Source of the DNA: a phage
Sequence record: PZ212788.1
DNA: 64,000 nt
Reading direction: 5' to 3' (one strand)
The notes under the pieces were generated by a model. That model saw only the letters and a program-made list of their open reading frames with translations. It was not told where the DNA came from and did no database searches. Positions 1 to 29,406 of the stretch are shown in pieces (within the stretch, counting starts at the first letter, position 1; each line of letters starts with the position of its first letter). Made by a program: the position numbers and the translations under genes.

Positions 1-182
1 CATGCCTTAACGGAGCTATCCTCCCAGAGTCCACTATTTATCTTAAAAGCAAGCAATATACAGGCTTCTATAAGGTGATCACGGTGCATCATAAGGGCAC
101 CATAGAAGGTGGTGATTACACTACAGAGCTTGGCCTTGGGGAAACAGTGGGTGGAGTTGTTGACAAAACTGAGGAGGTATGA
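1..182 (+). CDS. 3' end of an upstream ORF truncated by the window edge (hypothetical, probably tail-associated)
   Basis: Open frame from position 3 to TGA at 180-182, overlapping the ATG of the next gene in an ATGA arrangement; no start within window. Confidence 0.35.
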   Translation, partial: CLNGAILPESTIYLKSKQYTGFYKVITVHHKGTIEGGDYTTELGLGETVGGVVDKTEEV

Positions 183-859
183 TGGCAATAAATAGGAAAG
201 ATGCTGCTGTAAGATCTTTTATAGAAAAAATAATGAGGGACTACCACACCAGTATCAGGGCCAGAGTTGTCAGTGTAGACTACAGTATACCTTCTGCAGC
301 CGTGCAGCCAATAGCTGAAACTACGTTTGATGACGGAGATGTGGAGAGATACCCTCTTATCTATGACGTTCCAATTCAGGTGATGTCTGCAAACAGCGGA
401 AAGGCAAGGTTAACACTCCCTATTAAGGCTGGAGATGTTGTAGGATTGCAGTTTTCAGAGAGAAATGAAAACAATAACGACGATCAACAAACTCACGGCC
501 TGTTTCCAGGGTGGGCAATCACCTCTGTTCATTCAGACTCAAACGCCTTACAGATCGATCCTGATAACGTAGAGTTATGGAATGATAGGGTTTATTTTAA
601 ACTGACACCTTCTGGCGATTTTGAGCTTCAAACACCTGGTGGGACATTACGGTGCGACAGCAGCGGGGAGTTTTCTTTCACTAACGGGGCTGCCAATTTG
701 CGAGCTGCTGTGGATGGGAATATCAGAATGAATGGTGCTACAATAGACCCATCTGGTAGAATTATAACTGCTGCTGGCGTGGATTTGGATTCATTCTATG
801 CAGAATATAAAGGTCATACCCACTCTTGCCCTGATGGCGAGACAAGTGGACCGCACTAA
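179..859 (+). CDS. baseplate central spike protein (P2 gpV / Mu gp45-like)
   Basis: 226 aa; C-terminal apex contains GHTHSCPDGETSGP (HxH followed by Cys) as in metal-loaded spike tips; sits at head of a tail gene operon. Confidence 0.5.
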   Translation: MMAINRKDAAVRSFIEKIMRDYHTSIRARVVSVDYSIPSAAVQPIAETTFDDGDVERYPLIYDVPIQVMSANSGKARLTLPIKAGDVVGLQFSERNENNNDDQQTHGLFPGWAITSVHSDSNALQIDPDNVELWNDRVYFKLTPSGDFELQTPGGTLRCDSSGEFSFTNGAANLRAAVDGNIRMNGATIDPSGRIITAAGVDLDSFYAEYKGHTHSCPDGETSGPH

Positions 860-871
860 TAGAGGGCTTTC

Positions 872-1588: not shown

Positions 1589-1597
1589 GGAGAAATC

Positions 1598-2267: not shown

Positions 2268-4865
2268 ATGCGTATTCAACATAACATTGATAACGTATTT
2301 CAGATGATTGAGGGGCACAGGAAGTGCCTCGATAACAACACAGGTATTACCAACACCTCTACACAAAATAAGCTAGTAAACCCTGATGGTCTTATAGCTG
2401 CAGGGTGGGCAGGTAATAAGATAAATAATGATTGGGCAATGCATGAGTCCCAAGCTGTGTTGATTCTGGGATACATTGAAGCATACAGGGCATCGAAAAG
2501 CGATTTCTATCTGGATAGGGCAAAAGATGCTTGGGAAGCTTACAATAGCCATCTTCTGGGTGCATATGCAGTAGAAAGTAAAATGCAAAGATTGTCCCAC
2601 TACCCTCTATCCACAGATGGGGTTCCATCACATGGTGGGTTTAAAGATGTGGTGGTGTCTTTTACCAACGGTAGAGGAAAAATCCCAGCTGGATCTCCGA
2701 CATGGGGGGAATACCTTGACAAGGCATTCCAAGCGTATAACGGTGTGTTAGGAAGAAACACTGTAGACTCTGATGTTTACGGTGGCACAGATGCTAACCC
2801 AGATTGGACAACATCCGGATTAAGTTGGTGGGTTGAGTGGTACATAGCATGGGATGGTAACCGCTATTGGGCTAACGGTAGCATAGCCGACAGTGGTCAT
2901 ACGTCTGTAGAGTTCGGCACAATCCAATTACAAGATAAGGGTGTTACAGGCAGCCACAAGGTGACCTATTGTGTAAGATTACCTCAAGAGCAGGGCGGAT
3001 CGGTGATACCTGCAGGATCCCCTGTAATTGTAAATCCTATAAACGTGGTTGCAGATAATCAGGCCCCAGAGTTGGACGGGGAAGAAATGTGGTGTGACGC
3101 TTGTTATCAACTCTACACCTTGACAGGTGAGGAAAAGTATTACACCGCGTTTAAACAGTCTTACAACAAATTGCTTAATTTCAGTGATATAAACGCCTAC
3201 GACAAACTGTTTAGGAAGACCACGTTGATTAAGGCACCGTTTACAGATGGTACTTGCCTTGTTGCAGGAACAGTTCCTGCCATGAGCAGGGACAGTGACG
3301 GGTATATCAATTTTAGAATGAACGCACGCCAGCCTTGCGAAATAATTCAAAAAGGGACTACATACAAAATAGGCAGAGATGCTGAAATTGTTATGAATTT
3401 CGGAGGAGAAGGGGTTCTGTTCCAGCCACATTTCATCCTTAATGATGGCAACAATAACAAAAAACAGTACAGGATAGGGGTTCCTTTTGGAGGGGCAGAG
3501 GTAACAGAAATAGTTGCCAAGGTTACTGATTTCGTAGAGGTAGTTGGTAAAGACGGTAATCCGTATCTCTTACCTAAAGAGGAAAACATTGTCGTAAGCG
3601 GTGGCGCTAGTGTTAGTATGCAGTATGATACCGACATTTACAACCACTCTGACAACTTCACCCGTTGTAATATAGCAAGAGGTAAAGTAACTTTCAATTT
3701 TGGGAGAGAGATTTCTTTAAACTCAGTAACTTATCGATCAGATGATGAGATGGTAAGGGTCAAATTTCTTGACAAAGATAGGTGGTTATGGTATGCTGAT
3801 CTATATGCCACTAATGGACAATGGATAACAGAAACTCTTACTCTAGGAGATTTCAAACTAGATCCGACACAACCTCATCACACCGAAGAAGAGATTAAAC
3901 CTTTCTTTGCTAATCCTAAGGGGCTCACCTCTGTAGATTTCAGCCTAAGCGACAGGCAGATAGGTAATGGCTTGTTTGATCTGTACTGCGTAAACACGCT
4001 GCCGCAGTTCTATATTGCAGATAGGGATGCTTATCTGATCTGGTTTAGCGTATGGATGGCAAGCAAGACAGAATCAACCGCTAAGGTTGGTGATTGCTAT
4101 GTCAGAAACTACAAGCAAGGTGCATACAGGCACACACCAGGTGTGTTCCCTGCCGGAAAGGTGATAGATAAGGAAAACTATCTCTTAGAGGAAAGGCCAA
4201 ATTGGCCCTACCCTGGCATGCAATACCCAGCAGTCTACTGCATGGGTGCAGAAAACATAGATCGCCATAGATTGTCAAATACAATAGGCTTTCTGTATGA
4301 CTCTCAAGTCTGGTATAATAATACGTTTAAGACAGAGGGTCCAGTTGCCTCACGTTATGTATGGCAGAGAGGCAATGAAGGGTTGACTGGTTGGTGGGAG
4401 ATGGTAGATAACTCTAAGCTCCAGTCAAGATCTTTTGTTGCTGCGTGCCGCACAATATATGAGCTCAAGAAACATAAAGAACCTGTTGATGAAAGACTAT
4501 TCCTGTTCTGCCAGAAATGGGCATGGTTCCTCAACAGATTCCAGTCATCTCATTCAGGAAATCTGCCTACAGACTTTAACACCTCTGGGGGATATTCTTA
4601 TCAGGACAGAGGAGACAGGATGTGGGTGGTAGGTGAATGGCTTGCAGGTTGCTGCTGGCTAGGTCTGTGCGGGTATTCAGAGACAATACCTCAAATAGAT
4701 ATTGTTGTGGAAGCCTGTGTGAAGCTACTGCAAAAGCACCACTTCATTAATGGGGATAATATTTTAAACGGCTGCTGGGCAGTTTCTGATCCGGTAGGCT
4801 ATCACTCTGGCGAAATCCTTCGCGGTCTGGGCCTTTATGCTCAATACCGTGGATTGTACCTTTAA
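2268..4865 (+). CDS. large tail-associated protein, possible polysaccharide-degrading tailspike
   Basis: 865 aa ORF translationally coupled (TAAGATG) within the tail operon; no fibre-type N-terminal anchor; enzymatic nature is inference only. Confidence 0.3.
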   Translation: MRIQHNIDNVFQMIEGHRKCLDNNTGITNTSTQNKLVNPDGLIAAGWAGNKINNDWAMHESQAVLILGYIEAYRASKSDFYLDRAKDAWEAYNSHLLGAYAVESKMQRLSHYPLSTDGVPSHGGFKDVVVSFTNGRGKIPAGSPTWGEYLDKAFQAYNGVLGRNTVDSDVYGGTDANPDWTTSGLSWWVEWYIAWDGNRYWANGSIADSGHTSVEFGTIQLQDKGVTGSHKVTYCVRLPQEQGGSVIPAGSPVIVNPINVVADNQAPELDGEEMWCDACYQLYTLTGEEKYYTAFKQSYNKLLNFSDINAYDKLFRKTTLIKAPFTDGTCLVAGTVPAMSRDSDGYINFRMNARQPCEIIQKGTTYKIGRDAEIVMNFGGEGVLFQPHFILNDGNNNKKQYRIGVPFGGAEVTEIVAKVTDFVEVVGKDGNPYLLPKEENIVVSGGASVSMQYDTDIYNHSDNFTRCNIARGKVTFNFGREISLNSVTYRSDDEMVRVKFLDKDRWLWYADLYATNGQWITETLTLGDFKLDPTQPHHTEEEIKPFFANPKGLTSVDFSLSDRQIGNGLFDLYCVNTLPQFYIADRDAYLIWFSVWMASKTESTAKVGDCYVRNYKQGAYRHTPGVFPAGKVIDKENYLLEERPNWPYPGMQYPAVYCMGAENIDRHRLSNTIGFLYDSQVWYNNTFKTEGPVASRYVWQRGNEGLTGWWEMVDNSKLQSRSFVAACRTIYELKKHKEPVDERLFLFCQKWAWFLNRFQSSHSGNLPTDFNTSGGYSYQDRGDRMWVVGEWLAGCCWLGLCGYSETIPQIDIVVEACVKLLQKHHFINGDNILNGCWAVSDPVGYHSGEILRGLGLYAQYRGLYL

Positions 4866-4900: not shown

Positions 4901-7900
4901 ATGGCTGATATTAAAGTTGTCAGAATTGAATCTCTTCCTGCCACTACCGCAGTGACAGAGGATGATTACCTGGTTGTTCAACAACCAGACCTGACTCGTC
5001 GTGTAAAAATTGGCGATGTTGTCCATGTGGATGGGACTGTTTCTCATGTAATCTCCTTTAAGGAAGGTGGTAAGTTAAACGGCCCAATGGATTTTGCCTA
5101 CTTCGAAGAGGAAGACCTCTACCTGCGTTGGAAAGGCGAATTTCCACACACTGTTCCTGCACTGTCTTCACCGTACTCCGATGGTGGGATTACTGACGCT
5201 GCATGGATGGTATATACAGATCCGTCCTTAAGGGAGGAGCTGGAATCTACTATTGGCGCATCTATGATCATGACAGCCGAAGGGCAGTCTGTCCAGGATG
5301 TGATGGATGTTACGGTTCAGACAGCTAACGATGCTAAAGCACTTGCACAGCGGGTAGATTTTGGTACAGTACATACTGTAGGCGATGTTATTCACCTTGT
5401 CAACTTTGTGGGTCCTGCAGTTATTGAGGAGGGAAGAACCACCAACTACCCTTCCGTAGCAGCTGGTGAAAGATTTCTGAACGGTGTGGTATCTCGTCGT
5501 GATACTACAACTGTTGATGGTATTTTCCGTGGCGCTACCACCGGAGCCATGTACACCATTGCAGTAACCAACGGTGTAGCAACAACGAAAAGAATAGCAC
5601 TTCGTGATGAATTTAAACGCCTAGAGGCAAACAACCCAACAAGAACAGTTATCCGTGCTGGAGATGATTTAAATACGGCAGGGTACTTGCAGCTTGATGC
5701 AACAGGCCGTTGGGGTATGTGGAACCAACAAACAGCTTCGTGGCAACCTCTTGCTATAGAGCAAGGCGGCACAGGGGCTAGAGATGCCGCTGGAGTCCGT
5801 ATCAATATCGGTGCTTTCTATAAGCAACGTGCAGCCCTTGAGCCAAATTTCAATATCAATAACTTGACTGGTAATCAGGATGGTGTATACTATCAGCCAA
5901 TGACTGCTTATGCAACTGAGGCGAATGGTTACCCTGCAGGTTCTGGTGCGGGTCACTTGATTGTTTGGCAGAACAATGCTAACGGCGGTACAGGTTGTCG
6001 TCAGGAATACTATCCATTCTCTAACGTAGATGTTTGGTATTTGAGAACCTATCAGGCCAACACAAATCAGTGGACTGCATGGCAGCCGATGGTCAGACCT
6101 CGTAACGATGATACCTTCAGATCTCATATTGGCCTTGGTAAAAACAACTCGCCAGCCTTCGGGCACCTTTACTTAGCTCAATACTCGGGAGATGTTAAAT
6201 CGGCCTCAGGTATTCTCCATGGAGATAAATATAATACTGACGGTGTCCTTGAGCATGGATATAGGATCTATTCTGAGGTAAGAAACGACAATAAGGCTTG
6301 GTTGACAATCCACCTGCACAAAGGCGCAAAAGGATCTGAAACTCATAGATATTTAGGCTTCCGTGAGGATGGGGTCTTAGATTGTCCTAAATATATGCAG
6401 GTTGGTGATCTGAACGGTCAGATGGCAAACTGGGGACTTGGAGAATGGATCCGCAGTTCAGGAGCAGAAAGAGGTTTCTGGGGATCTAAGAAAGCCGCCA
6501 AGATGGTCATCTGGGATGGCGGTATGGACGAGCAAGGTGAAGGAACGCTTGAGTGGGGTGTTTATAACAACCGGAAAGCCAAATGGGAACCACTACCGAT
6601 AGCTTGTGGTGGTACCAGTGCCAGGACTGTAGGGGATGCTCAAGCACAATTCAGAATCCCTCTGGCAGCAGGTGCTAGACCATATGTAAACCTGCCTAGA
6701 ACTGCAGCTATGCAGGACGGTAAGTATTATCCTATTATCGTCAGAACTGACCCCAACTTTGCAGCAACTATCGGGACAGATTTAACCATTGTCACCAGAT
6801 CTTCTTCTGGCGGCGACCCAATGAACTGTGCTACACTACAGTGTCACTACAGAACTGGTGGCTGGACAGACAGAGGTGATTCTTTCCAAGGGGTTATTAA
6901 TTTCTACCAAAACGAGAAAGCAATCCTCGGATGTGTATCTCCAACCAGAGGTAAGCAGGAGTATGTTGCATTCTATGTAGAGGCACGTGCATTCCCTGTT
7001 ACAGTATATGCTGGCGCTACTGTAATAGAAGTGTCAACCAGGGAGGCTGATTGGCAGGTAGGCAACGTGACAGGTAACCAAGATGGTGTCAAGTTCTGTG
7101 CTCCTCTGGAATCTGCAGATTTGAGTCTTGCAATCAAAGGTGATGATGTAACAAACACCAGACCTCTGGTTGAGTTCAAAGGAACATCAGGTTTCTACAC
7201 TGGTGGTGGAACTATGTGGCACTACCTGGGGACTCCTGAACGCTATGCAGTGATGAGCAAAATGAACATGCCTAAAGTCGAGCTTTGGGCAGACGGTATT
7301 GACTACATTTGTCCTGGTAGTCAGACCACTAGAAAAGCACTGTTCTCTAACGCAGGGTTCCAAGCTGCATCGGAAGGAACAGAGGATCTGATCAACAACA
7401 CCTTTACCTCTAAATGTGGTAATGGTGCAAGACTGCAAGGCCAGGCAGAGTTCAGATCTACTCCGGAAGCTGGTCAAGTTATCGTTCGCGATGTTGTAGG
7501 TACAGCTCATAAGTTCTACAATTTCAACAAAGACGGCACATTTTTCCCTCCTGGAGGCTATGTTTGCCAGACAGGTGCTGACTGGAACAATCAGTTTGGT
7601 AATACAAACCCCTCCAAGATAATGGCTGGCAATGTCAACGGGCCGGAAGGTTCGATGGTTGTTGGTGGACTGTCTGTGGCGTTTTCTGGAAACTATGCTT
7701 TCCAAATGGCTGGTCGCCTTGATCAGTTATACACTAGGTCTATCGAAGGTGGTAACCATAGGGCATGGAACAAGGTTATTCAGCACCGTGGTCAAGGTCT
7801 GGGGACAGAAGACCTTAATGCCTACGATGGTAGCCGTGAAGGTTTCTATCACCAGGGTTCAAACGCTGACGCACTTGTAACAGATCGTCACTACCCTGCT

Positions 7901-8713
7901 CCGTACGCTGGTACACTGCTTGTTTACAAAAACACAGCTAACAGACCTCAAGGTTGTGTGCAGGAATATATCACCTATTTTGGTGACAGATATACTCGTG
8001 CTGGTAACTACGTTGGCGATGTCTTTACTTGGGAAGAATGGAGACACGATGCTGGTAAGGGCATCCAGTTAAGACCTAATTACACTTTTGGTGAAACCAG
8101 TAATCAACTGGAAATTCATATCGGTGCTAATGGTCTTCCCTCCAACGCAGATGGCTTACCTAAGGATGATGCTGTACTCCATTATTGGGGTAACGGCAGC
8201 ACAGGGGATCGTCCAAACGTGTTAGAGTTTAAGGTTCGTGACGAGTCTCAAGCAAATTGGGTATGGCATTGCGGTACCTTGCCGGATAAATCAAGATATC
8301 TTTCTGTAAACGGTGCTGTGAATTGCACATCTGTCAATCAGAGTTCTGACAGAGACCTGAAAGATAACATAGCTGTTATTCCTGATGCGTTAGAAGCTAT
8401 CCGGAAGATGAAGGGTTATACTTACACTCTTAAAGAGAACGGTATGCCTTATGCAGGTGTTATAGCACAAGAGGTGCTTGAAGCGCTGCCGGAAGCAGTT
8501 AGCTCTTTCGTGCAAAGAAAGGAAATCCCAAACCCTGATCAGGATGGAACTCCTTTAGTAACAGAGGAAAGATTCTACAGCGTGGATTACGCAGCCGTAA
8601 CAGGCTTGCTTGTCCAGGTTTGCAGGGAACAGGACGATAAAATAACCGCCCTTGAGGAGCAGGTTAAAAAATTGACAGAGGTTGTTACTGGGTTGCAAGA
8701 GAAACTTAAGTAA
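4901..8713 (+). CDS. long tail fibre with C-terminal intramolecular chaperone (peptidase S74-like) domain
   Basis: 1270 aa; C-terminus ...DLKDNIAVIPDALEAIRKMKGYTYTLKENGMPYAGVIAQEVLEALPEAV... followed by a coiled coil matches the endosialidase/T5 pb1-type autoproteolytic chaperone; N-terminal anchor shared with 1598 ORF. Confidence 0.7.
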   Translation: MADIKVVRIESLPATTAVTEDDYLVVQQPDLTRRVKIGDVVHVDGTVSHVISFKEGGKLNGPMDFAYFEEEDLYLRWKGEFPHTVPALSSPYSDGGITDAAWMVYTDPSLREELESTIGASMIMTAEGQSVQDVMDVTVQTANDAKALAQRVDFGTVHTVGDVIHLVNFVGPAVIEEGRTTNYPSVAAGERFLNGVVSRRDTTTVDGIFRGATTGAMYTIAVTNGVATTKRIALRDEFKRLEANNPTRTVIRAGDDLNTAGYLQLDATGRWGMWNQQTASWQPLAIEQGGTGARDAAGVRINIGAFYKQRAALEPNFNINNLTGNQDGVYYQPMTAYATEANGYPAGSGAGHLIVWQNNANGGTGCRQEYYPFSNVDVWYLRTYQANTNQWTAWQPMVRPRNDDTFRSHIGLGKNNSPAFGHLYLAQYSGDVKSASGILHGDKYNTDGVLEHGYRIYSEVRNDNKAWLTIHLHKGAKGSETHRYLGFREDGVLDCPKYMQVGDLNGQMANWGLGEWIRSSGAERGFWGSKKAAKMVIWDGGMDEQGEGTLEWGVYNNRKAKWEPLPIACGGTSARTVGDAQAQFRIPLAAGARPYVNLPRTAAMQDGKYYPIIVRTDPNFAATIGTDLTIVTRSSSGGDPMNCATLQCHYRTGGWTDRGDSFQGVINFYQNEKAILGCVSPTRGKQEYVAFYVEARAFPVTVYAGATVIEVSTREADWQVGNVTGNQDGVKFCAPLESADLSLAIKGDDVTNTRPLVEFKGTSGFYTGGGTMWHYLGTPERYAVMSKMNMPKVELWADGIDYICPGSQTTRKALFSNAGFQAASEGTEDLINNTFTSKCGNGARLQGQAEFRSTPEAGQVIVRDVVGTAHKFYNFNKDGTFFPPGGYVCQTGADWNNQFGNTNPSKIMAGNVNGPEGSMVVGGLSVAFSGNYAFQMAGRLDQLYTRSIEGGNHRAWNKVIQHRGQGLGTEDLNAYDGSREGFYHQGSNADALVTDRHYPAPYAGTLLVYKNTANRPQGCVQEYITYFGDRYTRAGNYVGDVFTWEEWRHDAGKGIQLRPNYTFGETSNQLEIHIGANGLPSNADGLPKDDAVLHYWGNGSTGDRPNVLEFKVRDESQANWVWHCGTLPDKSRYLSVNGAVNCTSVNQSSDRDLKDNIAVIPDALEAIRKMKGYTYTLKENGMPYAGVIAQEVLEALPEAVSSFVQRKEIPNPDQDGTPLVTEERFYSVDYAAVTGLLVQVCREQDDKITALEEQVKKLTEVVTGLQEKLK

Positions 8714-8720: not shown

Positions 8721-8750
8721 GCCCTCGCTTCGGCGGGGGCTTTTTGTTTG
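8721..8750 (+). terminator. rho-independent terminator (GC stem with TTCG loop plus T-run)
   Basis: gccctcgc-ttcg-gcgggggc followed by tttttgtttg immediately after the fibre stop codon. Confidence 0.7.
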
Positions 8751-8752
8751 TA

Positions 8753-8781
8753 TTGCGTATTAACTCAAAATCTGGTAAAAT
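8753..8781 (+). promoter_or_regulatory. sigma70-like promoter with extended -10 (TTGCGT-17-TGgTAAAAT)
   Basis: -35 TTGCGT 8753-8758, 17 bp spacer, TGg TAAAAT 8773-8781; same TGnTAAAATA motif recurs at 14284, 20615 and 56290. Confidence 0.55.
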
Positions 8782-8812
8782 AGCTATCATGATTGTTTAA
8801 CCTGGAGGCACA

Positions 8813-9403: not shown

Positions 9404-9404
9404 G

Positions 9405-14220: not shown

Positions 14221-14227
14221 CCTTTAA

Positions 14228-14255
14228 AGCCCCGCTTCGGCGGGGTTTATTTTTA
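14228..14255 (+). terminator. rho-independent terminator (same family as 8721)
   Basis: agccccgc-ttcg-gcggggt followed by ttatttttat after the J-like stop. Confidence 0.7.
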
Positions 14256-14263
14256 TGCTCAGA

Positions 14264-14292: not shown

Positions 14293-14325
14293 ACCTTGTA
14301 GAGATTTTCATACCGGAGGAGTGAC

Positions 14326-20653: not shown

Positions 20654-21697
20654 ATGACTAAACCAGTTATCCCTCTTGATATTTGGGCCAATCAGGATGT
20701 TGTGCTTGAAAATACGGGAGAGTTGAATAAGTCTCAACCAAAAAAAGAAGAGAGATTGAAAGGTTGGGATATGACACAAAGAATGGCATGTGAAGTTGTT
20801 AACTTTGAACTTCACATGCTTTCTGCGTGGTTGAAGCATTTAACAGAAGATGTTGTCCCAGGATGGGATAATAGATTCTTAAAGGTCACTAATAATCTAG
20901 CAGACGTTCCAGACAAAGCTGCTGCACGTCAAGTTCTCAATGTATACTCACCTGAAGAAATGGACGATCTATATGTTGACAAGTCTGGAGACATAATGAC
21001 TCAGACTCAAACTTTAGGTCTCCAAAGAATCGAGTTTGCATCTGCGTCAACAGACAGTGCGGCAATATATACCACCATAACGCCAGACAAGACGACGATG
21101 GATTTCTGGATTATGGACAACATCGGTGGTGCTGACGGCACAGACCTTGATGATCCTTCTCACCAAATAGACGGGTTCCGTTGGAGATTTCAACCTTCTG
21201 GTGGGCAGCCTGTGTTTTCGGCTATGAAGCTCAATGCTATAACTGCCAACCGTGCAAGACTGGCTATCCAAGGAAATCTTGAATGCAACGATGCAAAAAG
21301 TTCCTCTGCAAATGCCAATGCGGTCACGATACCAAGAGCCACTGTTAACGGACAACAATCCTGCGGAAGCGCTCAAATAGGTGGAAGAGTTGATTGTAAC
21401 GATGAAACCGTTAGAGGCCAATATGCAACCGTTGGTGGAAGAAACGTGGTCCGCAGGGTAAACGGTAACAGCGCAGACGGTAGTGGTAACCTTACTGTCC
21501 CTATGCCCAGTAGAGGGGTTGACGATGTAAGGATAGCAAACCGTTTCAAAACCACCTACAGAGAGTCAAGAGTCTACCCTGGACATGTGATGTGCTCTGG
21601 TAACTACGCTTATAAACACCCTTATCAAGGTGATTACTGGACAGGTGCTATCCAAAAACTTGTAAACGGTCAATGGATCACTATATCTTATGCTTAA
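20654..21697 (+). CDS. tail fibre protein (paralogue B)
   Basis: Start trimmed to ATG 20654 (AGGAGA RBS); N-terminus and C-terminal YWTGAIQKLVNGQWITISYA homologous to 18599 ORF, central region divergent. Confidence 0.6.
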   Translation: MTKPVIPLDIWANQDVVLENTGELNKSQPKKEERLKGWDMTQRMACEVVNFELHMLSAWLKHLTEDVVPGWDNRFLKVTNNLADVPDKAAARQVLNVYSPEEMDDLYVDKSGDIMTQTQTLGLQRIEFASASTDSAAIYTTITPDKTTMDFWIMDNIGGADGTDLDDPSHQIDGFRWRFQPSGGQPVFSAMKLNAITANRARLAIQGNLECNDAKSSSANANAVTIPRATVNGQQSCGSAQIGGRVDCNDETVRGQYATVGGRNVVRRVNGNSADGSGNLTVPMPSRGVDDVRIANRFKTTYRESRVYPGHVMCSGNYAYKHPYQGDYWTGAIQKLVNGQWITISYA

Positions 21698-21708: not shown

Positions 21709-21975
21709 ATGAAACTAACTCAGTTTTTATGGGGACTGGTTGCGGCATCTGATGACCCTACGAAAGTATCCCAATCTAAGCTATGGTCGAACATAGGCAT
21801 GGCGGTGATGACTGGGGTGTTTATTCATATGGGGTATAATGATACGCTTCCTGAATGGTATGCGTGGATATATGCACCTTCAGTAGCCTGCCCCCAGCTT
21901 ATTAGCAAATTCATCTCGCTCCGGTGGGGTTGCCAGCACCCTGACCACGTTAAAAACGAAGAGCAAAAAGCTTAA
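21709..21975 (+). CDS. small membrane protein downstream of fibre paralogue B
   Basis: 88 aa with one hydrophobic segment (IGMAVMTGVFIHMGY); RBS AGAGGG. Confidence 0.3.
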   Translation: MKLTQFLWGLVAASDDPTKVSQSKLWSNIGMAVMTGVFIHMGYNDTLPEWYAWIYAPSVACPQLISKFISLRWGCQHPDHVKNEEQKA

Positions 21976-21984: not shown

Positions 21985-23730
21985 ATGGCGCAAGACATGA
22001 CAAGCTTCGAGCAGGCGGTAGATCAAGTAATTGTTGATTCTGAACGTTTGCACTTGATTGTCAACGGTAACGCTGTGGATGAAGTTGTCGTAGAGGATGG
22101 GACCACTATCCCTACGGTACGAAAAGCCATGCTTGACACCCTTTATTTTAAAACGCCACCAATCCCTTGGGCGTATGGTGCATCCACAACAGTTTTTAAC
22201 CAGTTGTATGAGTTTAAAGGGGATACAGGCACTCAGTGGTGGTACGCCCCAGCAGCATCAAAATCTAACCCGGTTAGAATGCCAGCAGATCCTTCACAAT
22301 CTCCAAACTGGAGATTATACACCGACTCTGCAGTAATGGCAAAATACTACGCAAAACTTAACAGCCCAAGGTTCGAAGGTGACCCGCGAGTACCTACACC
22401 TCCAATGGACGACAAATCCGAGTCTATAGCAAACACAGAGTTTGTTGTTGACTATGTGGATAGCATATTTGAAGCCATGGAGGGAATGAAAGTTACTGTA
22501 GGGTCTTTGGTGGTAAAAGGTCTTACAGAACTTGCTAACACTATAGTTGGTGGCACACTCACCTTACATGGGCCTGTTAATGGAGCAGATTCTACTGCAC
22601 GCTTCAGGAACCTAATCCTCACGGCAAATACTTCTACACTTACTTTTGCGTGGAGTGATCCTAAGCATGCAGACTGGAGAAGCACAGAGCTGCAACCTCA
22701 TGAAGTGTCCACCCACAGGGTTATAGCTGACACTATAACTTCTGGGAAACCAGTGGCTAATAATAACGATGTGCATTTTGATGGTCTAGGTAATAACTTT
22801 TTTGACTACGTGTACATTCGTGGTAATGCCATGAAGGCAGCAACCGAACCGACATTGCAGGTAGATGGAACCACCAGGGTTAAGAACCTTGAGGTGACAG
22901 GCACTGTTACAGGGATAACCTACTCTGTCGATGGCACCATGATTTACCCTAGCTATATTGAAAGCACGGGGGACGCATTAATAAATGGTGATTTAGAAGT
23001 TGGCGGATCTGTAGTTATTCGAGGTACAGCCTCTATCCAAAACATAGCTCTGAATACCCTAAGAGTCAATGAGCGTGCAACTTTTGAAGGGGAAGGGCTT
23101 ACAGCCAACAAAGGTGTAATTACCGAGCTGACAACCACTACTTTAACTGCAACAACTGCAAACTCTGAAAACTGCAACGTTACCAGAAACTTGCAGGTAA
23201 ATGGAGATGTTAGTTTAAACGCAGCAGGGACGGGCACCACCTACCTTCACAACCTTGAAATATCCGGCACAGTGACTGGGTGGCTGCCAGACTTCTCTAA
23301 TGTCAACTTTGTTTGTAATGGCATTAACTCCAGTGGCAAGATAACCACCTCTCAAGAAATTGAGGCGGGTAAAACCATTACTGCCCCTACTTTCCACGCA
23401 GGAAAGGTAGATTTTGATTTAGAGGAGGTTGACGCGTCCAGTGGGACATGGACACCTAACGGGCAGGCCAGTATGTATGTTGTCCACGCGAAAGGGGATT
23501 TTACAATAGGACAATGGCCTGGTACATCAGCGGAAGATAAACCTTATCCATTCACTGCGGTTATCTATGTCATTCAGGATGCTGTAGGTCACAACGTGAC
23601 TTTGCACGATAAGTATGCTATCCTGTCGGCAACGCCTGTTATTAATAACAAGGCTAATAGTGTTACCTTGCTGCAATTAACATATTGTGGTGTTGGTGAT
23701 ATCGTAGACGTAGTAATTGCACAACGTTAA
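21985..23730 (+). CDS. tail fibre protein
   Basis: 581 aa; N-terminal region contains the fibre collar-type motif PRFEGDPRVPTPPMDDKSESIANTEFV seen in side tail fibres; AAGGAG RBS. Confidence 0.55.
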   Translation: MAQDMTSFEQAVDQVIVDSERLHLIVNGNAVDEVVVEDGTTIPTVRKAMLDTLYFKTPPIPWAYGASTTVFNQLYEFKGDTGTQWWYAPAASKSNPVRMPADPSQSPNWRLYTDSAVMAKYYAKLNSPRFEGDPRVPTPPMDDKSESIANTEFVVDYVDSIFEAMEGMKVTVGSLVVKGLTELANTIVGGTLTLHGPVNGADSTARFRNLILTANTSTLTFAWSDPKHADWRSTELQPHEVSTHRVIADTITSGKPVANNNDVHFDGLGNNFFDYVYIRGNAMKAATEPTLQVDGTTRVKNLEVTGTVTGITYSVDGTMIYPSYIESTGDALINGDLEVGGSVVIRGTASIQNIALNTLRVNERATFEGEGLTANKGVITELTTTTLTATTANSENCNVTRNLQVNGDVSLNAAGTGTTYLHNLEISGTVTGWLPDFSNVNFVCNGINSSGKITTSQEIEAGKTITAPTFHAGKVDFDLEEVDASSGTWTPNGQASMYVVHAKGDFTIGQWPGTSAEDKPYPFTAVIYVIQDAVGHNVTLHDKYAILSATPVINNKANSVTLLQLTYCGVGDIVDVVIAQR

Positions 23731-23778: not shown

Positions 23779-26700
23779 ATGCTTCCAATCCCTTTGCTAA
23801 AACTTGGTCGTCATTTCCTCGATAAGAGGGGTGGAATTAAGGAACTTGCTGTTCTGTCATACCCAATAGACAACAGTGATGGTACAAGCAACACAGTATC
23901 CTATGTAAATAGCTTAGCTATACTTTTTGATGATGGTCAGCTTAATATTACTGGCTATAATAGGTTCGGAGAGTGTCGGACTGGAGATCTTGATACAATA
24001 AACTATCCTAATGAGGCAGCTTGGAACGTAGACCATGTTTGGAGAGCTGACCGTGCATTTGTAATCCGCACATTCGATAATAAATTTTTCTATATTGGTT
24101 GCACAGCTGGTCTTATCGGATCGGAGGCAGCAGGTGGAAACGATGTTTGTGTCAGAGAGTGGACACCTTTGCCGGAACAGATCGTAACAGGGTTGCATTT
24201 GGACACCCATCCTGAGAGACTTGTTGAAGTAATGGGTGGCGTAAACAATACCGTGTGGGTAATTGCTGCACCAGAGGCTGATGGTATGCTTCACCTGTAC
24301 GGCTCTGGCAATAATACTTACGGCTCTCTTCATGTTGACAAAAGTCAACACGCTACTCCAGTTAAGATCGGTGAAACATCTGAAAGTCCAGAGACAGGTC
24401 CTTGGAAAAATCCAAGAATTAATTGTGAAGTTCATGACAACTCGGTTATTTTTGGTGGTCCTAACGGATTCTGGATTGCAGGTTACGACTTTCTGAGAAA
24501 TAACAGTAGAAACGACCTTGTTTGGCCTCCTGTGCAGATTACTCGTAACGATTTGAGGGGCATTCCTGCAGATGAGGAGTGGAAAGGGTTTATGTGTGGT
24601 CCTAACGGGGCAGTAATTGCTACACAGAGGATGCATAGACCCGATGACCAGCAGCTTGTTAACGTATTTTATGGTCAAAACATTTGGGGAGATGATACAT
24701 GGCGGGAACTGAATATCACCTACACCCATGAGGTAATGATGGCTCGTGGGTACGGCACAAGTGGCATTTTCTTCAATAATGGCACCAAGCAGTATCGTGG
24801 ATTCTCTCGCAACTTGTGTAATGATATTGGTGCACAATCTGCAAACAATAGTCCTAGGTCCGATTTTATCCACTATCAAGCTCTTGCTACAGCTAAATAT
24901 GTTGAGCAACGCCTGCCAGTTAGCTGGACAGAGAGTGTTTATTTCCAAGGCATCCATAGAGAAGGTTTCTTAGGGACCTTTACTGTTGTTAATGGTAAAC
25001 TTTGGTGGTCAGGCATCCCAAGGGGAAGTTTTGCAGGCTCTAACAACCTGTTTGGAGGCAGACTTAATAGCCAGGGGTTCACAGAGGTTCCTGAGAATTG
25101 GTATAAAAATGTCCCGGTAGACAGTTGGGGTGTTGAGGATATTTTCGACGTTAACGGTGTTAGCAGCGTTAGCAATATTTACATTGGTGACACGGTCAAG
25201 ATGAAGTTGAAGCCTCAGCCAGAGGGGGCTACGTTCATTATTGACAAGATTGAACTGGTAAATGCTGCAGGTACGGTTGTTACAGATGCAAATTACCAAT
25301 TCTCCACCAACTGGAACCACGGAGGGGCCAATGAAGTTGTTGTCACCCAGTATAACAGAAATGTTAACAGACGTGGCCTGTACTCTGTAAAAATAACCTA
25401 TCATGACAAGCATGGCACAGGCAGAACCCATACGACAAGGACTTTGAACTGGAACACCATAGTTCCTGCGTACCCGTCTGATGGTAAATGGCATACTGTC
25501 GGTAGAAACAAACAGTTCCATGTCAACGATACTGTATACTTTGGGTTGAATGCGGCTCAGCCTGCAGTAGAAGGGGATACATCGTATATGGTCAGACTCC
25601 ATAGAATGGATGCCGGATCAGTAACTTATGATGTTACCCAAGAGATTTATAATCAGCGACGAAATACCTATGATAACTTGGTGCAGACACAGGCCTTATG
25701 GGAGTTCAACCCAAACGGCAGAGGTGGTAAAATGTTGCAGGTCAATGAACAAAACGGGACATCGTTAACTGTTCACGAACACCCAAACCCTTGGCCTGAT
25801 CCTGGAAAACCTAACTCTGGTGCTCGTACACTGAAAATTGTCAGCCATGATGTAGGATATTTCGGAATACGCTGGGAAGCTACAGTAAGATATGCCGACG
25901 GGACAACAAACAACATAGGGATCACTCTTGGTGGCACTAGTGAGGATAACTCACTGAAAATTGCCTACACCCCTAGAGGCATCTCTATTGACAATATGGA
26001 TGTTGTTCGCAACGGTTACGGCGATGTGAATGTCAAAGTTACTCTTGGCGAACATCTTGGTGGGGAAAGGATCATCATGTATGCCTTTGATCATGACCCT
26101 CGCACCAACGGAACCTATGCAGACCAGGCGTGGAGCTACCTGATAAGCGCACCTGAGCCAAATACTAAAGAGTTCTACTACGGTATGAAGCGAGATGTGT
26201 GCAAGAAAACAGGAACACATGACTGGATTGCTATCTGCGTTAAAGATGAGCGCACAGCTTGGGACGAGCCTGTTAACAGATGGTTCATAGGGATTCCTAC
26301 CAGAAGTGATAAATACGTTGAAGACTATATCGTGTGTATGGGCGGCACCAACCTCAACATGTGTTGGAACGAGGATGCTGCAAACAAATACTCTGACTAT
26401 GACTATATGAGGGACTACTCTTGCAATCAATGGTTTAACCAATCCGGATATGCTAATCGACAGTCAAGAGTAAATCCTGCAATCTTTACAGATACGCAGG
26501 TTTTCTTGTTGAAACAGGCAAACGAGGTTCAGACCTTCAAGAATAACTATGACCCTAATAAGTGGTTCTACAACTGTTACGGGGCATACTTTTGGGGACC
26601 TGCTGAACTGCCTGACAGCGGCTCTTGCTTCGAGGCTGCAACCTACGGCAGCGACTATATCATGGGACAGGTCAAGAAGTACAAGATGATCCCAGGGCCT

Positions 26701-29406
26701 GAAACTTTAGGTAACGCTGTTGACCCATACATAAATTTCGCAGCTTTGCATGCGAATATGGATGGTGCAAGGTATCCGTTCAACGTTCCAGTCGCCAATG
26801 GGTACAGACGTGTCGTGATGATTATCAAATGCGATCTGATCGGAAAGCAAGTTCTTGCAGAAAACGGAACATCCACACATCCTTTTGAAGTTGCTCTGCA
26901 CTACCAGTTTGCAGACTCACCATATGCGGGAGATAAAAGAATCTCCGACACAGACTCTAAGCGCTGTAAGAAAGTTTTACTTGGAGCCGGGTGGTGGTGG
27001 TACGAGTTTGATTTAACAGATAAGTTCACAGATGATACCAAAACTCTCACAGGTATCCGTCTGGACCTTGGTGAGAACATGCACAAAGCTGTTTGTGATG
27101 GCACCTACGGTGATCCTACAGTATACTTGAAGTATGTCTCTCTTGAGCATCCAGAGGATGCCGTAATCGGTCCTAAACTGAAATTGTTCGGCTCATGGAT
27201 TGCCAAGGATAGAGTAGGAATGGGTAAGAAAGTGAGAGGATTCCTGATAGACGCAGGGACAGAGGACATGCTGGTTAATGCAGTGTGGCCTACGCTAGAA
27301 GGCACTGCCTACAACAATGCAGCTAGGTCTATAAATTGGTTCAACATTCACAGAGCTATGTGGACCACTAACTGCTACTTGTGGAGAGAGCTTAACGATC
27401 AGGCCTTTGGCTTTAGTGACGGCAGAAGGATGGCGATCATTTGCTGGACAACACTGCAAAGATGTTATGACCATGACTACGAGATTGGCGGTAGAGCATG
27501 GAAAGATATCAGAGATAGAATCATATACAATTTTGCAGATGATAATGGTGGCGGGGCATATAACTTTGGCACAAGCCGACTTATCCACTTGAACGGATCT
27601 TTAGCCTACAAGAAAGAAGGTTACTCTGGGTCCATGATCGAGTGGGGCCTGGTAAAAGATGCTCGTATATTGATGGGCCAGCAACTTGCTGCCGCAATAG
27701 GACCTAGCGCAGTGCAGTCTGTTAAACCAGCGTGGTTCGATATTCCATTGTGGTCACCTGGAACACCAGGAACTGCTGCAATCAACCCTACCACTGGGGA
27801 TCTAGAAATCTCATGGGAGGACTTGAAGCAGGTCGGTGGTTGGGATAAAACAGGGTATCAGGTTCAGTGGTGGAGGCCTGATGGATCTTTAGCCGCTGAT
27901 GAGTTTGTTAAGGACAATTTCTACACTATGTCTTCTGCAAAAGCACAGCAATTGTTCGGTCAGGCCACTCCGTCAACGATCACCATGTCTATGTGCTGTA
28001 AAGACAACAGGACTGGAGCTCTGGGACCGAGGGTTGCTAAGGTTTTCTCAGGTATTAAATGGAATCTTCCTGTTCAAAGTGTTTCATGGAAGCAAATAGG
28101 TGATAACAAGCTGCTGGTTACCCCTGCCTGTCAGTTCAACGCAACTCTTAACGTTGATCCTGCTGTTGCGGCAAACTCAGCTAAAGCTTCTGACTTCTCT
28201 GTGTCTAACACTGCTATGGCAGATGTGAGGAAGATTGACACACTGAACGCCAGAATTACCTGTAAAAACACTTATGGCACATTCCAAATCATCAACAACT
28301 TCACAGATGCTGATTCTAAGGTAGTAAGGACAGCAAGCCAGACTCTGAGTTTAGGGACTCTGGCCTATGCGGCCCTGATCACCGAGCAGTCGGCAACACT
28401 CCAAGGAGGTGGTGTAGGCAAGTCCATTGCAACACCTGTGTGGAAGCCAAATGAGTGGGTTGTGTTTGATTTGACTGTGGACTTCTCCAGCGATAATAAC
28501 TGGACATGGGTAAGGAATTGTTTGTCACAATTGATGGGAGGTCCAAGCTCCGTTAGTGATAGTCACGACTCTACTGACCCGAGTGTGTTCCAGGTAGGTA
28601 AAACTCACCCAGAGACTGGAGAAACGTTGCCTGACAGGAAGTATGCGTTGGTTTGCATCTCTTACGGGAAGGCAGATGTCACCTTCTCGGGGACACACAC
28701 TTATAACGGAACATACAATTTCTCAAGGAAGTATAGTCTCAAAGCAGGGAACATTATAGACGAGGTTGGTGCACTGTATAATCCTGGAAACGGCATAGGG
28801 ATTGTGGGTGGTCAACTGCAGATGCAGGAACCTTCTATTACCCCTTCCAACGTATCTGGGATTAGAAAGACTTGGGAAAGTAGCAATACCAACATTGCAA
28901 CAGTGGATGCTACCACAGGGCTGGTAACATTTAAAGCTACTGGGAATGTCACCATAAAGTTTGTAGTTACAGATGATGCAGGCCGCAAAACGTCCTCAAC
29001 ATCATTCACTGTCAAACAGATGGCACCTCAGTGGTTTATTTGGGAAGGAAATCCTCTTGACGGGGCCTACCCTAGACCTGCAGGAACGTCTAATATGAGG
29101 GTCTTTACCGGTCCGGTAATGAACAATCCGACCACAACCACCAACCCTACATTTTTTGGTGCTTACATACCTGAAATTATTGGCCTACCAAGGAACCAGA
29201 TACAACTGCTTTTCGGAGCAGGTGTTGATGGTCTAGCCACTTTTGGGTACAGTGACAACATTGATGCAGCCAGAAGCTCTGGTTGGATTGGATTTAAGTT
29301 TCAGTGGAACCCTGGTGGTAGAACATTAGGTATTGCAAGCATAGGTGTTATGCTACCTGGTAACCAGCAATACCATCTCGAAGCTTATACAAACTTCCCT
29401 AGTTAA
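23779..29406 (+). CDS. giant tail fibre/adhesin-like protein with bacterial Ig-like (Big_2-type) domain
   Basis: 1875 aa; C-terminal segment ITPSNVSGIRKTWESSNTNIATVDATTGLVTFKATGNVTIKFVVTDDAGRKTSSTSFTV resembles Big_2 domains; last gene of late operon. Confidence 0.5.
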   Translation: MLPIPLLKLGRHFLDKRGGIKELAVLSYPIDNSDGTSNTVSYVNSLAILFDDGQLNITGYNRFGECRTGDLDTINYPNEAAWNVDHVWRADRAFVIRTFDNKFFYIGCTAGLIGSEAAGGNDVCVREWTPLPEQIVTGLHLDTHPERLVEVMGGVNNTVWVIAAPEADGMLHLYGSGNNTYGSLHVDKSQHATPVKIGETSESPETGPWKNPRINCEVHDNSVIFGGPNGFWIAGYDFLRNNSRNDLVWPPVQITRNDLRGIPADEEWKGFMCGPNGAVIATQRMHRPDDQQLVNVFYGQNIWGDDTWRELNITYTHEVMMARGYGTSGIFFNNGTKQYRGFSRNLCNDIGAQSANNSPRSDFIHYQALATAKYVEQRLPVSWTESVYFQGIHREGFLGTFTVVNGKLWWSGIPRGSFAGSNNLFGGRLNSQGFTEVPENWYKNVPVDSWGVEDIFDVNGVSSVSNIYIGDTVKMKLKPQPEGATFIIDKIELVNAAGTVVTDANYQFSTNWNHGGANEVVVTQYNRNVNRRGLYSVKITYHDKHGTGRTHTTRTLNWNTIVPAYPSDGKWHTVGRNKQFHVNDTVYFGLNAAQPAVEGDTSYMVRLHRMDAGSVTYDVTQEIYNQRRNTYDNLVQTQALWEFNPNGRGGKMLQVNEQNGTSLTVHEHPNPWPDPGKPNSGARTLKIVSHDVGYFGIRWEATVRYADGTTNNIGITLGGTSEDNSLKIAYTPRGISIDNMDVVRNGYGDVNVKVTLGEHLGGERIIMYAFDHDPRTNGTYADQAWSYLISAPEPNTKEFYYGMKRDVCKKTGTHDWIAICVKDERTAWDEPVNRWFIGIPTRSDKYVEDYIVCMGGTNLNMCWNEDAANKYSDYDYMRDYSCNQWFNQSGYANRQSRVNPAIFTDTQVFLLKQANEVQTFKNNYDPNKWFYNCYGAYFWGPAELPDSGSCFEAATYGSDYIMGQVKKYKMIPGPETLGNAVDPYINFAALHANMDGARYPFNVPVANGYRRVVMIIKCDLIGKQVLAENGTSTHPFEVALHYQFADSPYAGDKRISDTDSKRCKKVLLGAGWWWYEFDLTDKFTDDTKTLTGIRLDLGENMHKAVCDGTYGDPTVYLKYVSLEHPEDAVIGPKLKLFGSWIAKDRVGMGKKVRGFLIDAGTEDMLVNAVWPTLEGTAYNNAARSINWFNIHRAMWTTNCYLWRELNDQAFGFSDGRRMAIICWTTLQRCYDHDYEIGGRAWKDIRDRIIYNFADDNGGGAYNFGTSRLIHLNGSLAYKKEGYSGSMIEWGLVKDARILMGQQLAAAIGPSAVQSVKPAWFDIPLWSPGTPGTAAINPTTGDLEISWEDLKQVGGWDKTGYQVQWWRPDGSLAADEFVKDNFYTMSSAKAQQLFGQATPSTITMSMCCKDNRTGALGPRVAKVFSGIKWNLPVQSVSWKQIGDNKLLVTPACQFNATLNVDPAVAANSAKASDFSVSNTAMADVRKIDTLNARITCKNTYGTFQIINNFTDADSKVVRTASQTLSLGTLAYAALITEQSATLQGGGVGKSIATPVWKPNEWVVFDLTVDFSSDNNWTWVRNCLSQLMGGPSSVSDSHDSTDPSVFQVGKTHPETGETLPDRKYALVCISYGKADVTFSGTHTYNGTYNFSRKYSLKAGNIIDEVGALYNPGNGIGIVGGQLQMQEPSITPSNVSGIRKTWESSNTNIATVDATTGLVTFKATGNVTIKFVVTDDAGRKTSSTSFTVKQMAPQWFIWEGNPLDGAYPRPAGTSNMRVFTGPVMNNPTTTTNPTFFGAYIPEIIGLPRNQIQLLFGAGVDGLATFGYSDNIDAARSSGWIGFKFQWNPGGRTLGIASIGVMLPGNQQYHLEAYTNFPS

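Follow-up and report, generated by a model that had tools for sequence, protein, structure and literature searches.

Can a complete siphovirus tail tip be carried by a contractile-tailed phage, and what might it do there? This question is raised by the late gene array at positions 179–29406 of phage sequence record PZ212788.1 (analysed as a stretch of 64,000 nucleotides, hereafter the window), in which four genes at 8813–14220 resemble the tail-tip genes of lambda-type phages and their neighbours resemble components of a contractile-tail baseplate. A previous sequence-only reading of the window had remarked on this co-occurrence, together with a large set of fibre genes, and had considered that one of the two component sets might be a motif-level misassignment.

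Megablast of positions 1–25000 against 50,697 phage records gave as best match Escherichia phage EduardKellenberger (Bas59, MZ501061.1), an rV5-like contractile-tailed E. coli phage classified in Vequintavirinae, Vequintavirus, with 97.6% identity along all 25 kb. The same search returned 132 matching records, in 96 of which one match spans at least 80% of the query. The long open reading frames (ORFs) from 179 to 29406, all on the + strand, pair one to one with bas59_0022 to bas59_0040, and every ORF named in the sequence-only reading had been placed correctly. In Bas59, the counterpart region is immediately preceded by the genes for the tail sheath, tube, tape measure, tube initiator and hub. 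The window start therefore falls inside the hub gene, with the sheath and tube genes outside the window. To judge from these matches, the array encodes the baseplate and tail fibres of an rV5-like Vequintavirus and belongs to its late genes. The sequence-only reading had recognised neither this close kinship to published, annotated phages nor the four-gene block as a discrete, apparently acquired unit as opposed to a blended baseplate.

A siphovirus tail-tip cassette in a baseplate gene array

Positions 8813–14220 constitute a complete siphovirus post-tape-measure tail-tip cassette, which forms one discrete block of four genes (protein lengths in amino acids, aa; the figures that follow family names are E-values):

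8813–9403, + strand: distal tail protein (Dit), the first gene of the cassette, 196 aa; phrog_1302 'distal tail protein' 5e-50
9405–9956, + strand: gpL-like tube-fold hub adaptor, 183 aa; phrog_2048 and fold match
9956–10381, + strand: DUF6950 protein, 141 aa; Pfam DUF6950 4e-33
10381–14220, + strand: J-like central fibre, 1279 aa; Pfam Phage_Tail_Tip 1e-38, Ig_J_second 1e-30 and Ig_J

The AlphaFold2 model of Dit, built from a 48-sequence alignment, has a pLDDT of 89.3 and in Foldseek matched pb9 of T5/DT57C over its full length (E 4.5e-9, TM 0.65), with the two-domain pb9 fold intact. The protein is 33–37% identical to the Dit proteins encoded after the tape measure in Seuratvirus KS_A3 and Yersinia phage PY54. 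Used alone as a query, Dit retrieved 7 proteins, and later searches were seeded with alignments of siphovirus homologues. Nothing connected it to lambda gpM by BLASTP or by hhalign with thin alignments, and when the 48 Dit homologues were scanned against Pfam with relaxed thresholds, no family recurred consistently. The gpL-like protein yielded an AlphaFold2 model of moderate confidence (pLDDT 73.1), which in Foldseek matched the N-terminal hub domain of T5 pb3 (2e-6) and lambda gpL (8iyk_L, 1.9e-4), as well as tip or baseplate chains of JBD30, Chi, R4C and T1; a further match was the gene-transfer-agent chain 6tba_7A, which we take to be the g13 hub protein. BLASTP and hhalign, again with thin alignments, found nothing between this protein and lambda gpL, and sequence searches of the PDB with the three small cassette proteins returned chance-level matches only.

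Matches of the J-like protein include PHROG 31 'central tail fiber J' (5e-163) and, among solved structures, lambda gpJ (8iyk_J, 1.6e-28). From its polar N-terminus the protein runs through hub domains and Ig/FN3 domains to what is probably a coiled coil; a Phage_Tail_Tip domain follows, and the C-terminal 149 aa are genus-specific. The DUF6950 protein carries the invariant motifs FEWGxxDCC and RGDxV, which pair with FEHGVTDCY and AQPGDVL of lambda gpK, and it is these lambda segments that are aligned in a weak hhalign match to the NlpC/P60 part of gpK (E 0.0028, probability 11%). The DUF6950 alignment contains no conserved histidine at the position expected for the NlpC/P60 Cys-His pair. We tentatively regard the product of 9956–10381 as an NlpC/P60-like counterpart of lambda gpK, and the DUF6950 family may be catalytically inactive or differently arranged. 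The same combination of an invariant FxWGxxDCC and a missing conserved histidine was also observed in the siphovirus homologues of the family (loci L003, L004 and L007–L009).

None of the strict lambda families (Phage_min_tail, Phage_tail_L, the NlpC_P60 and JAB domains of gpK, and gpI) had a Pfam match in the cassette, and there is no gpI-like gene. In comparison with the siphovirus tips of lambda (gpM-gpL-gpK-gpI-gpJ) and T5 (pb9-pb3), the folds are the same, and the J-like protein has its Ig and Phage_Tail_Tip domains in common with lambda gpJ; gpM and gpL are related to the cassette proteins at the fold level only. 'Lambda-like' is true of the cassette by fold and by gene order, whereas strict family membership fails except for J. 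The lambda M-, K- and J-like assignments of the sequence-only reading fared unequally: J was borne out by Pfam and by 8iyk_J, M holds for the pb9 fold and fails for the gpM sequence, and K comes down to the weak motif match.

The same genes, in the same order and at 96–98% nucleotide identity, make up the locus in rV5, LL12 and the BASEL phages Bas49–Bas59; nothing substantive differs, and most of the minor allelic changes fall within the J-like gene, in its distal half. In the Vequintavirus literature, the J-like protein appears as a 'lateral tail fiber with fibronectin type III domain', and no discussion of the three genes before J as a tail-tip set was found in the searchable Vequintavirus papers. 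Nor was any discussion of the cassette found in the searchable literature as a whole, a collection that lacks many subscription-journal papers. The 2006 GenBank notes for rV5 state that ORFs 37–40 resemble PY54 proteins; the similarity is therefore already on record, though without interpretation.

Distribution, probable origin and insertion site of the cassette

BLASTP comparison of the cassette with Seuratvirus KS_A3 gave 33% identity for Dit (6e-29), 40% for the gpL-like protein (2e-46; annotated in KS_A3 as 'tail protein') and 44% for the DUF6950 protein (8e-45). The J-like protein is 54% identical to KS_A3 J over 731 residues (E 0), a match that covers aa 48–758, corresponding to the hub half. 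Identities to the PY54 counterparts range from 29 to 42%. In both KS_A3 and PY54, the tape measure gene is followed directly by the homologues: a distal tail protein gene comes first, then genes for a tail protein and a small hypothetical protein, and lastly the gene for central fibre J. This four-gene order is repeated in Serratia phage Serbin and in two Vibrio phages, of 47 kb and 83 kb. The arrangement of tape measure, Dit, tail protein, DUF6950 and J, with the same four families in the same order, is common to Seuratvirus, Nonagvirus, PY54, Serbin and Vibrio siphoviruses. Lokivirus Halfdan keeps the four-gene order with one gene inserted. In this variant (L009 6592–9339), a 915-aa ORF splits the cassette between the Dit and gpL-like genes; the cassette therefore tolerates insertions in siphoviruses too.

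A tblastn search with the 196-aa Dit found 119 Vequintavirus records at an identity of at least 90%. Outside Vequintavirus, in a sample spread across the ranking, all Dit homologues were less than 60% identical and came from phages of 1.7–83 kb with a siphovirus layout, and the N-terminal 540 aa of the J-like protein gave the same tblastn pattern there. Viral contigs of IMG/VR were then scanned for loci with a DUF6950 alignment and the best 80 loci were taken; 76 of the 80 contain all four families, which are collinear in every case (76/76). An ORF of 500 aa or more ends just 5' of the Dit gene in 57 of 77 loci; the median length at this position, 948 aa, is that of a tape measure. Myovirus markers were observed only in the one Vequintavirus fragment among these loci, and the other contigs are no longer than 76 kb. 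Here, the cassette follows a fibre gene and a terminator/promoter module, not a tape measure; the tape measure gene of this phage lies upstream of the hub gene. The locus thereby differs from siphovirus tips in having no preceding tape measure and in belonging to a contractile-tailed phage with its own hub and spike.

We also compared the locus with those of related contractile-tailed phages. With 19 window proteins as tblastn queries, none of the four cassette proteins was found in the syntenic 41-kb regions of a Seunavirus-like Klebsiella phage and the phi92-like phage PHB05. Both of these cassette-free regions keep the spike, sheath initiator, wedge, baseplate proteins and short fibres in the same order, and the wedge protein of the Klebsiella phage is 60% identical. 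In the gene list of Septuagintavirus W70, the sheath initiator gene directly adjoins the wedge gene (PMC11370258), and the published baseplate inventories of phi92 (PMC13450770) and phiTE name no tail-tip-like components. These comparisons indicate that the cassette is genus-specific, being missing in the three sister lineages examined, and that it was horizontally acquired from siphoviruses of the Seuratvirus/PY54 type.

The cassette is flanked by the two largest intergenic gaps in its part of the array, which hold two copies of a predicted regulatory module:

8721–8782, + strand: intrinsic terminator and extended -10 promoter, copy 1, immediately 5' of the cassette; hairpin GCCCTCGCTTCGGCGGGGGC and T-run, then AAATCTGGTAAAATA
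14227–14293, + strand: intrinsic terminator and extended -10 promoter, copy 2, 5' of the wedge gene; AAGCCCCGCTTCGGCGGGGTTT and T-run, then TTGACT, a 17-nt spacer and TGGTAAAAT

The terminator core CGCTTCGGCGGGG occurs in three exact copies in the 64 kb, with a fourth copy that has one mismatch, against 0.02 expected by chance. The extended -10 promoter AAAT(C/T)TGGTAAAATA has two exact matches in the window, both beside the cassette, and the promoter motif AAATYTGGTAAAATA is exact only at the two cassette-flanking sites. The third copy of CGCTTCGGCGGGG lies at 40389–40401, in the early/middle gene region. A terminator with TATGGTAAAATA also precedes the wedge gene in the cassette-free Seunavirus-like Klebsiella phage (L005). 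The terminator/promoter pair was at one point considered to be an insertion-specific scar, an idea that was rejected because this cassette-free relative has the same module type 5' of its wedge gene; for the same reason, duplication of a pre-existing regulatory unit is the better reading. On the simplest reading, the cassette would have entered at the terminator/promoter junction that precedes the wedge gene, the regulatory unit being duplicated in the process, and the cassette and wedge genes would each be expressed from their own copy of the native late promoter.

Possible role of the cassette in the virion

To assess selection, dN/dS was calculated by the Nei-Gojobori method in comparisons with Bas59 and rV5. 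The values were 0.02 for Dit, 0 for the gpL-like protein, 0.03 for the DUF6950 protein and 0.03 for J, with a cassette maximum of 0.035. Within the baseplate core, the spike gave 0, and the spike, sheath initiator and wedge together ranged from 0 to 0.02. These values indicate that the cassette is functional and under strong purifying selection, in a range like that of the baseplate core.

The N-terminal 540 aa of J, the hub half, are at least 95% identical in 117 Vequintavirus records, and residues 874–1279 show 60–100% identity with indels. The C-terminal 149 aa occur only in Vequintavirus and in no other phage record. Their dS is 0.63, compared with 0.1–0.2 in the rest of J, which suggests allele exchange. 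The distal part of J had been considered as a hypervariable receptor-binding tip; this idea was dropped, since the last 149 aa are conserved at 80–100% identity and the variable stretch with indels lies before them. The N-terminus of J is polar, with a maximum 19-residue Kyte-Doolittle hydropathy of 0.31 and 9 charged residues in the first 45, whereas the first ~45 residues are hydrophobic in KS_A3, PY54, Serbin and a Vibrio phage (hydropathy 1.9–2.2, 1–4 charged residues). Furthermore, the gpL-like protein lacks the C-terminal WGSKKDAPxFxYE tail that is conserved in its siphovirus homologues. With the polar J N-terminus, the loss of the gpL-like tail and the Vequintavirus-only J C-terminus counted in favour, we infer that the cassette has been repurposed; these three features, together with the lack of a gpI equivalent, also set it apart from the siphovirus tips.

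In the mechanism that we propose, a Dit ring, the gpL-like adaptor and a J trimer, the latter through its hub half, would still co-assemble into a tip-like cone. This cone would no longer be a DNA conduit and would be mounted on the baseplate periphery as an extra receptor-binding fibre. Such non-conduit, peripheral mounting is proposed because the phage has its own hub, spike and tape measure and because the hydrophobic N-terminus of J has been lost; the cassette J is also without a tape-measure partner, which is a further reason for proposing that the cone does not conduct DNA. Taken as a whole, a contractile core with co-made fibres and an acquired siphovirus cassette turned peripheral fibre is the best explanation of the locus, and we consider it probable. 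The stronger claim, that rV5-like myoviruses mount complete siphovirus tail-tip complexes (Dit ring, gpL-like protein and J trimer) peripherally as an additional long fibre, is a possibility that we advance tentatively.

Some published virion data bear on these proposals. For rV5, mass spectrometry of CsCl-purified virions is reported to have detected peptides of gp37, the J-like protein, at 4.2% coverage (PMC3606486). For the Bas49 and Bas54 maps, the RBPseg authors describe density on one fibre head that was fitted by no fibre model (PMC12143355); that this unmodelled density beyond the fibre head is the cassette complex is speculation on our part. An O177-phage 'proteomics' paper was set aside as virion evidence, as it is in silico only.

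Several points weigh against the peripheral-fibre explanation. The gp37 support is thin, amounting to four peptides, several of them non-tryptic, and the table portions covered contain no Dit or gpL-like peptides (PMC3606486). The cryo-EM study of Bas49 and Bas54 resolved three fibres only and did not assign the J-like protein (PMC12143355). It is also not obvious where a hexameric Dit ring would dock on the baseplate of a myovirus. The gpK-like match is weak, at an hhalign probability of 11%, with the usual catalytic histidine apparently absent. Finally, the sister-genus comparison consists of tblastn on two loci and one published gene list, not every genus.

A different division of labour would make the J-like protein alone the virion fibre, with the Dit-like, gpL-like and DUF6950 proteins acting as assembly factors for J folding and trimerisation, or as small adaptors, and forming no ring. 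Lambda provides a precedent, as its gpK and gpI are assembly factors that are absent from virions or scarce in them. The loss of the conserved C-terminal tail of the gpL-like protein would fit such a role, and the text of the rV5 proteome study names gp37, not gp38–40, among the detected tail proteins (PMC3606486); however, that proteome listed only 19 proteins, and the absence of gp38–40 is therefore weak evidence. Moreover, the Dit model retains the full two-domain pb9 fold at high confidence, the dN/dS values of Dit and the gpL-like protein (0 to 0.02) are as tight as those of structural core proteins, and the hub half of J, which is the contact for gpL and Dit in siphoviruses, is the most conserved part of J. 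We consider it unlikely that J serves without its partners.

It is considerably less likely still that the cassette products are not virion parts at all and act inside the cell, for example as decoys against defences that target siphovirus central tail fibres, or that the cassette is a selfish passenger. Host defences against central tail fibres or tail assembly do exist, according to two reports (10.1101/2023.09.04.556158, PMC11364771), and the virion mass-spectrometry evidence is weak. Nevertheless, the cassette lies inside the late structural array, behind a putative copy of the wedge gene's predicted promoter, and some gp37 peptides were recovered from CsCl-purified rV5 (PMC3606486). A 1279-aa Ig/FN3 fibre with a coiled coil, a dedicated C-terminal domain and a dN/dS of 0.03 is also hard to see as a passenger.

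Baseplate core and fibre repertoire

The contractile core on which the repurposed cassette would be mounted is encoded on both sides of it:

3–182, + strand: baseplate hub gene, 3' end only, truncated by the start of the window; equivalent to bas59_0021 'baseplate hub protein'
179–859, + strand: central spike (phi92 gp138 / P2 gpV type), 226 aa; PF18352 E 1.4e-9
872–1588, + strand: sheath initiator (T4 gp25-like); phrog_4233 and phrog_120 'baseplate wedge subunit'
14326–15816, + strand: baseplate wedge 2 (T4 gp6 / P2 gpJ type); Pfam Baseplate_J 3.6e-9, above the curated cut-off; phrog_6
15828–16514, + strand: baseplate protein, putative wedge 1; phrog_4056 'baseplate protein' 2.5e-103

Sequence searches of the PDB matched the spike to phiTE 9cuy_Y (4e-62) and to phi92 3pqi (crystal) and 21vq_t (cryo-EM) at 2e-18. 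The 872–1588 product matched the phiTE 'Sheath initiator protein' 9mjn_d6 (5e-61) and phi92 gp139 (5.5e-15), and the 14326–15816 product matched phiTE Wedge 2 9cuy_T (2.6e-158) and phi92 gp145 (1e-55). The gpV-like spike, the gp25-like wedge component and the J-like baseplate protein that had been proposed from the sequence alone thus all stayed within baseplate families after profile- and structure-based annotation. A homologue of the 15828–16514 product is encoded directly 3' of the wedge 2 gene in the Seunavirus-like Klebsiella phage (58%) and in PHB05 (29%); from this position, with phiTE and phi92 as models, the protein is presumably wedge 1. The phi92 spike has an OB-fold, a beta-helix and an iron-binding apex, and its structure resembles that of the P2 spike (2026 cryo-EM paper, PMC13450770); phi92 gene roles were taken from this paper and from secondary citations. 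The core, consisting of hub, iron-tipped spike, sheath initiator, wedge 2 and wedge 1, is of the standard contractile type.

The remaining genes of the array are predicted to encode fibres and associated proteins:

1598–2266, + strand: small fibre or adaptor with a TSP1/gp66-type N-terminal domain, 222 aa; Tail_spike_N 2e-10; phrog_7760 'tail fiber protein' 8e-120
2268–4865, + strand: lateral fibre, 865 aa; phrog_2871 'tail protein' E 0
4901–8713, + strand: lateral fibre, 1270 aa; Tail_spike_N 3e-10 (N-terminal), Peptidase_S74 9e-14 (C-terminal intramolecular chaperone), phrog_6578
16514–18586, + strand: fibre with an N4 gp65-like TIM barrel, 690 aa; TIM-barrel_NCTSP 4e-80; NCTSP_N 7e-13
18599–19639, + strand: short tail fibre, paralogue 1 (Mu gpS-like); phrog_4465; annotated in Bas59 as short tail fibre
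19654–20238, + strand: tail fibre assembly chaperone, between both short fibres; Caudo_TAP 9e-12; phrog_136
20250–20564, + strand: conserved protein within the fibre array, 104 aa; phrog_5345 (unknown function) 1.5e-48; homologue in the Seunavirus-like Klebsiella phage
20654–21697, + strand: short tail fibre, paralogue 2; phrog_4465 7.5e-166
21709–21975, + strand: predicted membrane protein, 88 aa; phrog_1322 'membrane protein'; homologues in the Klebsiella relative and PHB05
21985–23730, + strand: fibre, 581 aa; phrog_4549; N-terminal part homologous to phiTE tail fibre
23779–29406, + strand: giant fibre-like protein with a Big_2/intimin-like Ig domain, 1875 aa, last gene of the array; Big_2 2.6e-8; phrog_15684, phrog_11922 'tail protein'

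At least eight fibre- or spike-like proteins had been expected from the sequence-only reading, and all nine ORFs that it listed carry such signals, each having a tail-fibre or tail-protein profile match or a fibre domain. The 865-aa fibre is 35% identical to a tail protein of PHB05 over 927 aligned positions, nearly the whole query, and is annotated in Bas59 as a lateral tail fibre with glycosidase domains; a PDB sequence search found no relative of solved structure. The two short-fibre paralogues are 43% identical to each other, and aa 8–325 of the 581-aa fibre matched the phiTE 'putative tail fiber protein' 9cuy_g (2.2e-77). The Tail_spike_N domain builds branched receptor-binding complexes in CBA120 and G7C. 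It occurs here in the products of 1598–2266 and 4901–8713, as in the TSP1/gp66 adaptors of those phages, but there is no evidence of the same branching order, and the rest of the proteins are unrelated to Kuttervirus tailspikes. The 690-aa fibre is 43% identical to its phi92-like orthologue. In Vequintavirus and phi92-like phages, the fibre with the N4 gp65-type TIM barrel has been identified as the protein that binds the NGR surface glycan (bioRxiv 10.64898/2026.04.02.716166), and Maffei et al. tied the same fibre by homology to the other N4 protein, Gp64, through a common deacetylase domain, and to wecB dependence (PMC8594841); by analogy, the 690-aa fibre is likely to bind the NGR glycan. 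The class of the 1270-aa fibre and the short-fibre type of paralogue 1 have both been located by cryo-EM on Bas49 and Bas54 (PMC12143355). The 1875-aa protein has weak intimin matches besides Big_2, and its rV5 counterpart, gp27, is weak in virions, with 3 peptides (PMC3606486).

Comparison with the solved relatives places the cassette and the fibres in context. phiTE (Certrevirus, Vequintavirinae; 9cuy, 9mjn) is the closest solved relative of the core, sharing wedge 2, the spike, the sheath initiator and the N-terminus of the 581-aa fibre, but the published description of its baseplate names a short and a long fibre plus another candidate, without tail-tip-like components. phi92 (Justusliebigvirus; 21vq, 3pqi) has the same spike, sheath initiator, wedge and hub core and likewise displays several fibres together. 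The phi92-like phages have orthologues of the 865-aa, 690-aa and short-fibre proteins and of the chaperone, but they lack the Dit/gpL-like/DUF6950/J cassette and the 1875-aa protein and possess an endosialidase and a colanic-acid-degrading spike instead.

A many-fibre, multivalent apparatus is established for this family, having been published as the 'nanosized Swiss army knife' of phi92 and for rV5 and the BASEL collection. Extensive fibre sets were described for rV5 (PMC3606486) and LL12, and the low-resolution cryo-EM study of Bas49 and Bas54 noted nine annotated fibre proteins, of which three were resolved (PMC12143355). Nine fibres, two short-fibre paralogues and an N4 gp65-like glycan binder are thus already on record for Vequintavirus (PMC3606486, PMC8594841, PMC7229145, PMC12143355). 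Three fibre sets are co-expressed and were visualised on phi92, and all tested Vequintavirinae have a broad lysis host range (PMC8594841, PMC13450770). Since a large fibre repertoire is known for this exact phage group, the repertoire as first reported for the window is ordinary. In the proposed scheme, one baseplate core would carry several fibre types made together, and several glycan-binding or glycan-degrading heads would therefore be displayed at once.

The sequence-only reading had inferred a host range that is broad or switchable. Its multivalent, broad component agrees with the published phi92 and Vequintavirinae data, whereas a switch between fibres in place of simultaneous display, whether by DNA inversion, diversity-generating retroelements or alternative expression of the two short-fibre paralogues, is highly improbable. 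The neighbouring paralogues, 43% identical and with a chaperone gene after the first, bear a superficial likeness to the alternative fibres of Mu and P1, but no inverted repeats of at least 24 nt were found anywhere in 1–30000 and every array gene is on the + strand. Profile scans of the fibre-array proteins (179–29406; downstream ORFs were not scanned systematically) detected no invertase or reverse transcriptase domain, and the literature describes the fibres as co-expressed (PMC8594841). That either the lambda-tip-like or the contractile-like set is a motif-level misassignment, and the baseplate not mosaic, can be virtually dismissed, for although Pfam has no match for three proteins (8813–9403, 9405–9956 and 872–1588) and lambda gpM and gpL are undetectable by BLASTP or hhalign, both sets are confirmed by solved-structure sequence matches, predicted-fold matches and PHROG profiles, and the gene order is conserved with bona fide siphoviruses and myoviruses. 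Both component sets being independently confirmed, the mosaic is therefore real.

Further observations were made elsewhere in the window and among the matching records. An rIIB homologue (42912–44117) is split by a single in-frame TAG at 43491–43493, where Bas59 has TGG (Trp) in an otherwise identical 86-nt stretch; the TAG reflects an amber mutation of this isolate or else an error in the sequencing. A 244-aa ORF with HNH_3 and AP2 domains at 50021–50755 lies between the primase/helicase (47884–49962) and DNA polymerase (50752–53529) genes, which in Bas59 are separated by a 58-bp gap only, and it probably encodes a homing endonuclease. A DUF2201 metallopeptidase/VWA-like protein is encoded near a MoxR ATPase gene (Bas59 annotation), the two loci being 33685–35166 on the - strand and 38797–39981 on the + strand; the pairing of DUF2201/VWA-like proteins with MoxR is frequent in bacteria. 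No tRNA genes were found in the window. Among the matching records, 18 are named 'Campylobacter phage' (host Campylobacter jejuni, mostly unannotated) and are ~96% identical to the E. coli phage type; these records look mislabelled or derived from contaminating coliphages.

With many fibres and a broad host range being textbook features of the family, the remaining interest of the locus lies in the genus-wide siphovirus tail-tip cassette: every sequenced Vequintavirus examined keeps the intact four-gene cassette inside its contractile-tail baseplate operon. The proposed peripheral fibre is testable on the BASEL phages and on the existing cryo-EM maps EMD-51868 and EMD-51869. The matter also has a practical side, as phages of the rV5 type are often considered for therapy and for biocontrol of E. 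coli O157. If a tip-like complex does sit on the baseplate rim, a whole multi-protein machine would have moved between tail architectures and changed its job, a kind of transfer that has so far been seen mainly for single receptor-binding domains.

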